A DNA stretch of 8,845 nucleotides from a virus. Taxonomy: Duplodnaviria > Heunggongvirae > Uroviricota > Caudoviricetes. The stretch lies in IMG/VR virus record IMGVR_UViG_2534681831_000026; one strand, 5' to 3'. Position 1 is the stretch's first letter, and each line of letters starts with the position of its first letter. Made by a program: the position numbers. Shown in pieces: positions 1 to 3,000 of the stretch.

Positions 1-3000
1 CTTGTTTCCGGAGAGCCAGTTGATATTGCAGTCAGTGTTCACAGGACAATGCAGGAGTGTGTGACTGCAGCAACCGAACAGAAAATTCCCGGTAACTGTT
101 ACCCGGTCGATAAAGTTATTCACCAGGATAATAACGAAATCCCGGCAGGTCTTTAAAACAGTTCCGTAATAAACATCCGATTTCATTCTTATATGCCAGC
201 AATGGCAGGGATTTTGTTCACCCTTAAATCTGTAATGAGGTAAAACAAAATAGAGTAAAGTCTTTAATTTGCGCCGCCATTCCGGACGAACAGGCAATAA
301 AGGAAGAAGGTGCAGTCGCTGTAGCCACTGCCATTGAAGCCGGTGATGAATGTCGCGCCCGCGCAAAATTTCACTGGCAATTCCTGGAACATTATCCGGC
401 TGCTCAGGACTGCGCTTATAAATTTATTGTCTGCGAGGATAAACCTGGCATACCCCGCCCTGCCCTCGATTCATGGGATGCTGAATATATGCAGGAAAAC
501 CGCTGGGATGAGGAGTCTGCTTCTTTTGTCCCGGTTGAGACTGAATCCTATCCGATGAACGTCACTTTTGACAAGCTGGCCCCTGAAGTACAGAACGCTG
601 TCATGGTTAAGTTCGACACATGTGAAAACATCACCGTTGATATGGTTATTAGCGCACAGGAATTGTTGCAGGAAGACATGGCAACATTCGACGGACATAT
701 CGTTGAAGCGTTGATGAAAATGCCAGAAGTTAACACCATGTATCCGGAGCTTAAGTTGCACGCCATTGGGTGGGTTAAGCATAAATGTATTCCTGGTGCT
801 AAATGGCCCGAAATTCAGGCAGAGATGCGCATCTGGAAAAAACGTCGCGAAGGTGAACGCAAGGAAACCGGAAAATACACGTCTGTTGTTGATCTCGCCC
901 GCGCCAGAGCCAATCAACAGTACACTGAAAATTCAACAGGAAAAATCAGCCCGGTCATTGCTGCCATTCATCGCGAATACAAGCAGACATGGAAAACACT
1001 GGATGACGAACTGGCCTACGCTCTCTGGCCTGGTGATGTGGATGCCGGAAACATTGACGGCAGCATCCATCGCTGGGCAAAAAATGAAGTTATCGACAAC
1101 GGCCGCGAAGACTGGAAGCGTATCTCGGCATCAATGCGCAAACAGCCTGATGCCCTTCGCTACGACCGCCAGACTATTTTTGGCCTTGTCCGTGAACGTC
1201 CGATCGACATTCACAAAGACCCTGTGGCACTGAACAAATACATTACTGAATACCTGACTACAAAGGGCGTGTTTGAAGATGAAGGAACAAATCAGAGCGC
1301 AACTGACACTCTCTCGTCGCCAGTACCAGAAACTGATGCAGTGGAAACGGCAATTCCGGACAACGAAAAAACCGAATGCAAAGTGGAAGTCGAACCATCT
1401 GTAGAGCGTGAGGGGCCGTTCTACTTCCTCTTCACCGACAAGGATGGCGAAAAATACGGTCGCGCAAACAAACTTTCTGGTCTGGATAAGGCGCTGTCTG
1501 CTGGGGCTACTGAAATCACGAAAGAAGAATATTTCGCCCGCAAAAACGGTACATACTCAGGTTCACAACAAAATACTGGTGCATCTGACACGACCGCACA
1601 ACCAGGGTCAGTAAAAGTTACCGCTGACGAAGTAAACAAAATTATGCAGGCAGCCAATATCAGCCAGCCTGACGCCGATGAACTGCTTGCAGTATCACGT
1701 GGTGAATTTGTTGAAGGGATTAGCGACCCGAATGATCCGAAATGGGTTAAGGGGATCCAGACCCGCGATTCTGTGAACCAGAACCAGCAAGAAACGGAAC
1801 AGAACGACCAGAAAGCGGAACAAAACAGCCCAAATACGCAACAAAACGAGCCAGAAACGAAACAACCTGAACCAGTAGTGCAACAGGAACCGGAAAAGAT
1901 CTGCACCGCCTGCGGTCAGAGCGGTGGCGGCAACTGCCCTGATTGTGGTGCGGTGATGGGTGACGCAACATACCAGGAAATATTCGATGGAGAGAATCAG
2001 CCTGAAGTTCAGGAAAATGATCCGGAGGAAATGGAAGGCACTGCGCATCAGCACAAGGAGAACACTGGCGGCAATCAGCATCATGCCAGCGATAGTGAAA
2101 CTGGCGAGGCGTCAGATCCCTTAATTAAGGCGAACGGTCATCATAATCTCACATCCACCAGCAGAGCGGGGATTCATCTGATGATCGACCTTGAAACCAT
2201 GGGAAAAAATCCCGATGCCCCGATTATCTCAATAGGTGCAATATTTTTCGATCCGCAAACCGGAGATATGGGACCGGAATTTAGTAAGACTATCGATCTG
2301 GAAACTGCTGGCGGAGTCATTGATCGGGACACCATTAAATGGTGGCTTAAGCAATCACGCGAAGCGCAATCTGCCATTATGACCGATGAAATCCCGTTAG
2401 ATGATGCACTGTTACAATTGCGGGAATTTATCGACGAAAACTCCGGTGAATTTTTTGTTCAGGTCTGGGGAAATGGAGCCAACTTCGACAACACGATTTT
2501 GCGCCGTTCATACGAACGGCAGGGGATCCCCTGCCCGTGGCGTTACTACAACGATCGCGATGTACGCACAATCGTTGAGCTGGGGAAAGCCATAGACTTC
2601 GATGCCAGAATGGCTATTCCATTCGAAGGTGAGCGCCATAATGCACTTGATGACGCCCGTTACCAGGCAAAATACGTTTCAGTTATCTGGCAAAAACTGA
2701 TCCCGAGTCAGGCTGATTTTTAATGTTCAACCCTAATTGCCGCTAACCGTATATAGTTAGCGGCGGTTATGAGATATAGCTATGAGTAGCTTATTTTTAA
2801 CCGAAGATGAATTGCTAATATTAACGGGCTGCAAATATGCAAGCCACCAGCGAAAATGGTTAACGGAAAACGGGCTTCCGTTCTATACCAATCGTAGTGG
2901 CAAACCGATTGTCAGCCGGGATCTATTTACCTGCAATAAAACTTTACCACCACGCGAGGTAGAGCCGAATTTTGGTGCAATCTGATGGGAAGACGAAGGA

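Follow-up and report, generated by a model that had tools for sequence, protein, structure and literature searches.

What role can be assigned to a 3'-5' exonuclease gene that occupies the position at which lambdoid phages encode their recombination exonuclease? The question is raised by a window of 8,845 nt (the whole stretch of DNA analysed here) from the Caudoviricetes record IMGVR_UViG_2534681831_000026 of IMG/VR, in which a long gene stands upstream of the excisionase and integrase genes xis and int, in the so-called exo slot, and for which an earlier note had proposed a DEDDh nuclease domain instead of a PD-(D/E)XK domain as in RecE. Taken as a whole, the evidence is best explained, with a probability of roughly 0.6, by an intact orthologue of the E. 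coli gene ydfE, whose product would combine a RecE-like scaffold with a 3'-end DNA nuclease of the type of T4 DexA, serving conflict or scavenging and not recombination. The earlier note had left the role open between recombination, processing and anti-defence or superinfection exclusion; this point is still unsettled, and the evidence below, together with two papers from 2025, leans away from recombination towards DNA degradation in conflict.

The C-terminal ~190 aa of the product are, by sequence and by modelled structure, a DEDDh 3'-5' exonuclease domain with the full two-metal set D-E-D-H-D. The Pfam profile PF16473 ('Rv2179c-like 3'-5' exoribonuclease'), which the earlier note had expected at the C-terminus, matches aa 563-734 of the 744-aa ORF present in the window (E 6.5e-67, 225 bits with a gathering cut-off of 27 bits) and does so over model positions 2-177 of 177, with PF00929 (RNase_T) as a weak second Pfam match. 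T4 DexA (PDB 8KEL/8KEN) is the only solved relative found by sequence (E 1e-6). The AlphaFold model of the domain, with a predicted local distance difference test (pLDDT) of 82 and a predicted template modelling (TM) score of 0.78, shows the RNase H-like alpha/beta fold of the DEDDh superfamily and is again closest to DexA among PDB structures (E 2e-10, TM about 0.7), with a Cas2-DnaQ domain, RNase T, Orn (oligoribonuclease) and REXO2 ranking next; there were 146 PDB matches at E<=0.001, and the best 50 of these 146 are all DEDD-type exonucleases.

The five putative catalytic residues, D567, E569, D667, H717 and D722, align with DexA D7, E9, D119, H186 and D191 and hardly vary among 120 homologues. 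Motif Exo I, D567-L-E569 within 'MIDLETMG', has its D in 102/108 and its E in 100/108 ungapped homologues, the Exo II aspartate D667 within 'GNGANFDN' occurs in 118/121 sequences, and the Exo III pair H717 and D722 within 'HNALDDA' is invariant in 112/112 ungapped sequences, the spacing H-x4-D identifying the 'h' subtype. The D-x-E motif of the earlier note is thus confirmed, while its motif III has to be corrected from H-x3-D to H-x4-D (D722, not D721, is the invariant residue) and its motif II reads N-F-D. A non-DEDD fold or unconserved motif residues, which the earlier note had named as speaking against its assignment, were not what we found; PD-(D/E)XK and other non-DEDD folds are ruled out by the PF16473 match, the sequence match to DexA and the fold search, and the Pfam scan gave no match in the protein to PF12684, the PD-(D/E)XK profile that K-12 RecE matches at 615-850.

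While the nature of the domain stood, the extent of the gene needed revision. The 744-aa ORF described before exists, but its ATG is only the first surviving one in frame: in E. coli O111:H8 strain 8B, whose DNA is 99.9% identical to the window, and in phage mEp460_ev081 the coding sequence (CDS) comprises 823 aa and begins at an ATG corresponding to window position ~250, so that 744-aa positions plus 79 give 823-aa positions, and the shorter ORF covers positions 80-823 of the PHROG 2082 profile. The complete product would be composed of a YdfE_N front end, a RecE-like middle with a zinc ribbon and a long flexible linker, and the C-terminal DexA/Rv2179c-like DEDDh domain. The N-terminal ~550 aa, left undefined by the earlier note, correspond to this YdfE-type front end and the RecE-homologous middle; that note had overlooked the start at ~250, the ydfE orthology, the rank of the gene among the commonest prophage genes of E. 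coli and its presence in existing catalogues.

Over its first 256 aa the protein shares 98% identity with the ydfE pseudogene of the K-12 prophage Qin, where the order is dicA-ydfABC-dicF-dicB-ydfD-ydfE'-IS2-intQ', and homologues 93-94% identical carry precomputed matches to Pfam PF27430 (YdfE_N) and PF27432 (YdfE_C). On these sequence grounds the window gene is an intact orthologue of K-12 ydfE. Three domains within the first ~340 residues are predicted with confidence by AlphaFold, and no recognisable fold relatives were found for any of the three. The middle is homologous to K-12 RecE (BLASTP, E 6e-61), its last 150 aa being nearly identical to RecE, and the homology ends at '...ETGE-x-x-DP-x-I', just before the RecE nuclease domain. 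The protein nevertheless falls well below the NCBIfam RecE equivalog NF007259, which matches only at positions 271-603 with 273 bits vs a cut-off of 1269. Between alleles, the ratio of non-synonymous to synonymous substitution rates (dN/dS) is 0.11-0.17 in YdfE_N, 0.3-0.6 in the linker-rich middle and 0.07-0.23 in the DEDDh domain, from which we conclude that the gene is maintained by purifying selection.

A search with the first 634 aa as query revealed proteins that are 93-94% identical over this stretch and end in PF12684, not PF16473 (P0145, P0149, P0153, P0156 and P0165 at 900 aa). The one such PD-(D/E)XK locus read is L005, that of P0149; there the gene and recT overlap, and lar, DUF1187 (rcbA), xis and int come next. 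The DNA alignment with L005 places the junction at window ~2126-2130, with an identity of ~99% 5' of ~1980 that decays through the linker and is gone after 'GATCCC.TAAT'. Since near-identical front ends carry either nuclease, in one such locus with recT-lar-rcbA, the sequences identify 'PD-(D/E)XK + recT + lar + rcbA' and 'DEDDh alone' as alternative cassettes on one scaffold, the recT side being known from a single locus. An exhaustive search of 1.84 billion cluster representatives gave only 235 relatives of the scaffold, and among the long ones every pairing of N-terminus (YdfE_N or the RecE-type PF06630) with nuclease head (DEDDh or PD-(D/E)XK) occurs. In SMS-3-5 and strain 21310 the alleles have a DEDDh domain almost identical to that of the window gene, but their N-terminus is unrelated. 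A large further group of scaffold relatives has a C-terminus of neither nuclease type, and among the members scanned these C-termini had no Pfam match, nuclease or other. To this group belong proteins of 700-790 aa with YdfE_N and a RecE-like middle (P0246, P0249, P0257, P0259, P0276, P0286, P0302 and P0306), which may be the 'RecE-2' of Zheng et al. or may bear a third kind of head. Another protein, P0312 (703 aa), joins the RecE N-terminal domain (PF06630) to a RecT domain without an intervening nuclease, which points either to a fusion by deletion or to an artefact of annotation.

The genomic setting is uniform. In all five independent DEDDh contexts compared (O111 strain 8B, phage mEp460, SMS-3-5, JJ1886 and strain 21310) the order is repressor, ydfA/B/C, dicB, DUF1482 (ydfD), DEDDh gene, xis, int. 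This order is kept with no fewer than three distinct xis-int modules and at the two chromosomal attachment sites that were identified; in DicB-type lambdoid prophages the gene closes the early-left operon as its last large gene. The position upstream of xis-int given in the earlier note was correct, as was its statement that no RecT/Bet/Erf-type annealase lies between the gene and xis. Looking further upstream, we found an annealase partner in none of the five contexts; in the O111 prophage every neighbouring early gene was scanned with Pfam and PHROGs, again with none found, and the full mEp460 annotation contains no Rec genes. A hidden annealase among the early genes of the O111 prophage was thereby rejected. 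The gene therefore has no adjacent recT as RecE does, xis following instead after a short gap, and neither the five contexts nor the whole of mEp460 hold a lambdoid Rec module as understood by Zheng et al. 2025, i.e., an annealing protein usually accompanied by an anti-RecBCD function. The possibility that the gene is a transcription unit of its own was rejected as well, since consensus scans for promoters and terminators gave results at chance level. DNA of the DEDDh domain is present in 4047 of 5426 complete E. coli genomes (75%), in up to 7 copies per genome and mostly at 95-99% identity, and DNA of the RecE nuclease domain in 1730 of the 5426 (32%), where the annotation among the matches listed is recE|recT.

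RecET is the workhorse of recombineering, and to our knowledge no function has been described for the first 600 residues of RecE. Because one scaffold carries either nuclease, and because the DEDDh form is free of an annealase and more than twice as common as the RecE nuclease, these residues might have a function independent of strand-annealing recombination, e.g., targeting DNA ends or a host factor. The two kinds of allele form a natural pair for probing this function.

The window contains two Chi sites, one ~25 nt inside the DEDDh-specific segment (Table 1) and one at 2844-2851, also on the complement strand. The former is present in 5/5 DEDDh alleles read and absent from both the L005 PD-(D/E)XK allele and K-12 recE. 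Both have the orientation that is over-represented in phage mEp460 (mEp460_ev081), whose gene is 98% identical to the one studied here and which has 7 Chi sites on the top and 2 on the bottom strand vs ~0.9 and 0.5 expected. Zheng et al. 2025 (Zheng, Casjens, Davidson, Amundsen, Smith; Genome Res; PMC12315714) report that phages without a Rec module are enriched in Chi and use host RecBCD, and that lambdoid phages have genes for DnaQ-like 3'-5' nucleases which, when outside Rec modules, usually lie beside int. With its Chi excess and its lack of Rec genes mEp460 fits this class of Rec-less and Chi-rich phages, so that the Chi pattern of dependence on RecBCD is seen in the only complete carrier phage that was checked.

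For the activity of the domain the closest published guide is the work on T4 DexA by Kang et al. 2025 (NAR; PMC12153337), who present the DexA structure and ~3200 bacterial DexA homologues, 38% of them from Escherichia. In their study the E. coli homologue EcD ('HREX') degrades T4 DNA and not unmodified DNA, and plasmid-expressed EcD protects cells from T4. The window protein is a DexA homologue with an intact catalytic set, as HREX/EcD is, and its RefSeq form in strain 8B, WP_086893289.1, is included in Table S3 of that paper, the main text of which mentions neither prophages nor a RecE context. The motif 'IDTET' was in none of the homologous proteins collected, and in searches derived from the EcD primers, viral contigs included, the 23-mer had no match and the 18-mer one chance match. 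As a separate observation, hundreds of database entries for the domain are 'partial' proteins of 180-360 aa, several of which begin exactly at 'MIDLETMG'; these starts look as if a gene caller had set them within pieces of the long gene, and literature counts of 'stand-alone' E. coli DexA homologues may therefore be inflated. Domains of PF16473 type occur in 1623 phage records, and stand-alone PF16473 exonucleases are encoded directly 5' of int in Salmonella phage 118970_sal3 (189 aa, L013 3995-4564) and Vibrio phage K329 (203 aa, L014 3453-4064), so that a DEDDh nuclease beside int recurs without the RecE scaffold in these unrelated temperate phages.

By analogy with DexA and EcD, the enzyme would remove nucleotides from free 3'-OH ends of DNA. 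It would then make no 3' tails for annealing or RecA-dependent recombination and would not be a recombinase of the Red/RecET type; a 3'-5' nuclease destroys the 3' tails needed by annealing and RecA loading and so would be no functional substitute for Exo or RecE. The carrier phages would rely on host RecBCD and Chi instead. Most probably the nuclease would serve to degrade DNA with exposed 3' ends when phages compete, or else, like DexA, to break down host DNA for scavenging; the former would include excluding rival phages, perhaps ones whose DNA is modified, in line with the published effect of EcD. That the RecE-like scaffold positions the nuclease is the weakest step of this proposal. Rec-less, Chi-rich lambdoid prophages have a single large early-left gene, for which the reading as a ydfE orthologue with a DexA-type nuclease would provide a concrete functional candidate. 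Should the anti-T4 activity of EcD extend to the fusion protein, most E. coli would carry at least one copy of a defence nuclease that lies outside PADLOC-DB 2.0.0.

Several observations weigh against this reading. The start codon is destroyed in the window, PF16473 is named for an exoribonuclease, and the structural neighbours next to DexA are RNases (RNase T, Orn and REXO2). Expression in the lysogen, needed for a role in defence, is doubtful, since the gene belongs to a repressor-controlled early-left operon and no promoter rose above chance. The DexA residues proposed to recognise 5-hydroxymethylcytosine (5hmC), W152 and D169, fall on Y and A in the MAFFT alignment, whose register at single residues is unreliable at 26% identity; in the same register a Trp lies three residues before the Tyr aligned with W152 and an Asp two residues after the Ala aligned with D169, and of the tetramer contacts of DexA S87 aligns with P, and D90 with D or the adjacent A, depending on a shift of one residue. 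PADLOC-DB 2.0.0 contains no defence model for the gene and gave only a weak CRISPR-associated DEDDh match (E 1e-5). Finally, nuclease activity, substrate and polarity of the fusion protein are predictions.

A broader and more tentative proposal, which we hold to be possible but clearly short of even odds, generalises from the module swap: the RecE/YdfE scaffold might be a delivery platform with swappable heads, its N-terminal domains targeting or sensing, and the DEDDh form might be a prophage weapon in phage-phage conflict, used for the exclusion of phages with modified DNA or for counter-defence, again not for recombination.

That the enzyme is, on the contrary, a recombination nuclease working with host RecA and RecBCD or RecFOR, e.g., by trimming non-homologous 3' flaps or blunting ends for RecBCD loading, with the scaffold recruiting it to the place of RecE, appears unlikely. 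The scaffold and operon position are those of RecE alleles, the carrier phage is rich in Chi, so that its DNA ends would be processed by RecBCD, and all DEDDh alleles read have the Chi site just within the DEDDh segment; in addition, Zheng et al. 2025 (PMC12315714) describe DnaQ-type nucleases tightly packed within bona fide Rec modules of some lambdoid phages, e.g., epsilon34. However, the same paper explicitly excludes the int-proximal DnaQ-type genes from Rec modules, neither an annealase nor a RecBCD inhibitor accompanies the gene, and 3'-5' exonucleases usually inhibit recombination.

The destroyed start codon leads to the question whether this particular copy is an inactive remnant, with a 744-aa product that would lack half of the first folded domain (predicted at about residues 1-95). 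Relative to its relatives the window has three single-base insertions, at ~212, ~252 and ~266, the second of which lies inside the start codon (ATG to ATAG); the start is lost through these insertions, yet the frame is open from 228 on. The adjoining int is disrupted by an insertion sequence (IS), and a prophage defective in this way would fit such a remnant. Against decay of the gene itself, none of 5426 complete E. coli genomes shares the three insertions, the best match over the stretch being 158/161, and the remaining ORF is intact and does not differ from that of strain 8B. Because the insertions are absent from these genomes and similar isolated 1-bp indels break the oligonucleotide cyclase gene further along the window, they are probably sequencing or assembly errors, and otherwise private mutations of a defective prophage. 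Overall, we regard an inactive gene in this genome as distinctly unlikely.

There is little chance that the product is instead an RNA exonuclease that trims or degrades small RNAs (sRNAs), tRNA fragments or short oligoribonucleotides during phage development, although the M. tuberculosis exoribonuclease Rv2179c gave PF16473 its name, the RNases listed above are near in structure and the K-12 version of the operon encodes the sRNA DicF: DexA, to which the domain is closest among solved structures in both sequence and fold, is a DNA exonuclease, EcD acts on DNA (PMC12153337), and the domain stands in for a DNA nuclease on a DNA-recombination scaffold. Least probable of all is an anti-defence nuclease directed at defence nucleic acids with free 3' ends (retron msDNA, reverse-transcriptase cDNA or linear oligonucleotide signals), a possibility which the earlier note had also raised and which an early-operon gene, expressed at the stage when host defences have to be overcome, and an exchangeable nuclease head typical of conflict genes would suit, but for which no supporting link was found in literature or databases, DEDDh enzymes moreover needing a free 3' end so that cyclic signals would not be opened.

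The coordinates of the gene, its parts and its neighbours are given in Table 1. Because int is interrupted, the prophage is probably unable to excise; in the related strains 95NR1 and 95JB1 a full IS1203 is annotated in the int region. Between the exonuclease stop and the xis start lies a perfect 9-bp hairpin, GCCGCTAAC-(8 nt)-GTTAGCGGC, at 2739-2764, which is unlike an intrinsic terminator in that no T-run follows it. A search of the window for known RNA families found only two tRNAs. At its far end, window 7977-8845, the window contains the gene for an oligonucleotide cyclase (SMODS) of the type found in cyclic oligonucleotide-based antiphage signalling systems (CBASS), the intact 331-aa form of which in strain 8B matches a PADLOC cyclase model with E 3e-149 and which in the window is cut to a 190-aa ORF by 1-bp indels at ~8531, ~8599 and ~8626. 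In strain 8B the cyclase is followed by an effector with four transmembrane segments (4TM) that is split into three ORFs. The CBASS island is AT-rich (27-37% GC) and adjoins a P4-type integrase at tRNA-Asn.

Table 1. Coordinates of the ydfE-type exonuclease gene, its parts and the adjoining features (window positions)
Feature	Position	Strand	Remarks
ydfD-type (DUF1482) gene, 3' part	1..156	+	immediate 5' neighbour in the early-left operon; equals L001 CDS 11965-12156; frame-1 translation ends at 156
Complete ydfE-type exonuclease gene	250..2723	+	823 aa in relatives; from alignment with O111:H8 strain 8B and phage mEp460
ORF of the earlier note	489..2723	+	744 aa
YdfE_N region	270..1031	+	aa 7-260 of the 823-aa form; predicted alpha/beta domain and helical domain
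RecE-homologous middle	1035..2126	+	aa 262-625 of the 823-aa form, corresponding to RecE 278-591; helical domain, then long Q/E/N/P-rich linker
Four-cysteine zinc-ribbon-like motif CxxC-x7-CxxC	1902..1946	+	C472, C475, C483, C486 (744-aa ORF); common to RecE; weak Pfam DZR match
Module junction	2124..2132	.	homology to PD-(D/E)XK alleles and RecE ends after '...ETGEASDPLI'; BLASTP end at aa 625 (823-aa form)
Chi site GCTGGTGG (complement strand)	2155..2162	-	~25 nt inside the DEDDh-specific segment
DEDDh 3'-5' exonuclease domain, DexA/Rv2179c-like type (predicted)	2175..2690	+	Pfam, fold search, catalytic residues
Putative catalytic codons	D567 2187-2189; E569 2193-2195; D667 2487-2489; H717 2637-2639; D722 2652-2654	+
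Excisionase-like gene xis (DUF4224)	2782..2985	+	58 nt past the exonuclease stop
Integrase split by an IS3-family remnant	2985..4290	+	N-terminus 2985-3161; rest 3391-4290
IS3-family transposase fragment, 80 aa	3201-3443	-	interrupts int
tRNA-Ser(CGA)	4343..4432	-	prophage end and integration site; adjoins mtfA

As a sequence finding the gene is ordinary and already known: RefSeq names the product 'exonuclease' or '3'-5' exonuclease', the gene belongs to a class described by Zheng et al. 2025, and the exact protein is in the list of Kang et al. 2025. With K-12 ydfE it shares the order dicB-ydfD-ydfE-(IS)-int and the front end, whereas in the K-12 gene IS2 follows residue 256, and neither the RecE-like middle nor the nuclease domain is left. 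The Rac prophage has RecE (exonuclease VIII) at the corresponding position of its early-left operon; RecE has residues 278-591, the zinc ribbon and the 'ETGE..DP.I' end in common with the window gene, and alleles with the scaffold of the window gene and the nuclease of RecE exist. RecE differs in its N-terminus (Exonuc_VIII, PF06630, instead of YdfE_N over the first ~260 aa), in its PD-(D/E)XK nuclease (5'-3', whereas the DEDDh domain is predicted to act 3'-5') and in the recT that follows it in Rac, while no recT, lar or rcbA lies downstream of the window gene. T4 DexA, the best match by sequence and structure, has the DEDDh fold and the five catalytic residues in common with the window domain at an identity of 22-26%, several DexA loops being missing from the window domain, and both DexA and EcD are stand-alone proteins of ~190-227 aa, whereas the window domain forms the end of an 823-aa RecE-like protein. 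The gene, its position and the Chi count of mEp460 all fit the DnaQ-type class as outlined in PMC12315714, the main text of which mentions neither the fusion of a DnaQ-type nuclease to the RecE scaffold, nor the swap with PD-(D/E)XK and recT, nor the frequency in E. coli. To these systems the present analysis adds the position of the junction, the exchange of cassettes, the free pairing of heads and N-termini, the Chi site at the junction and the frequency of the DEDDh form.

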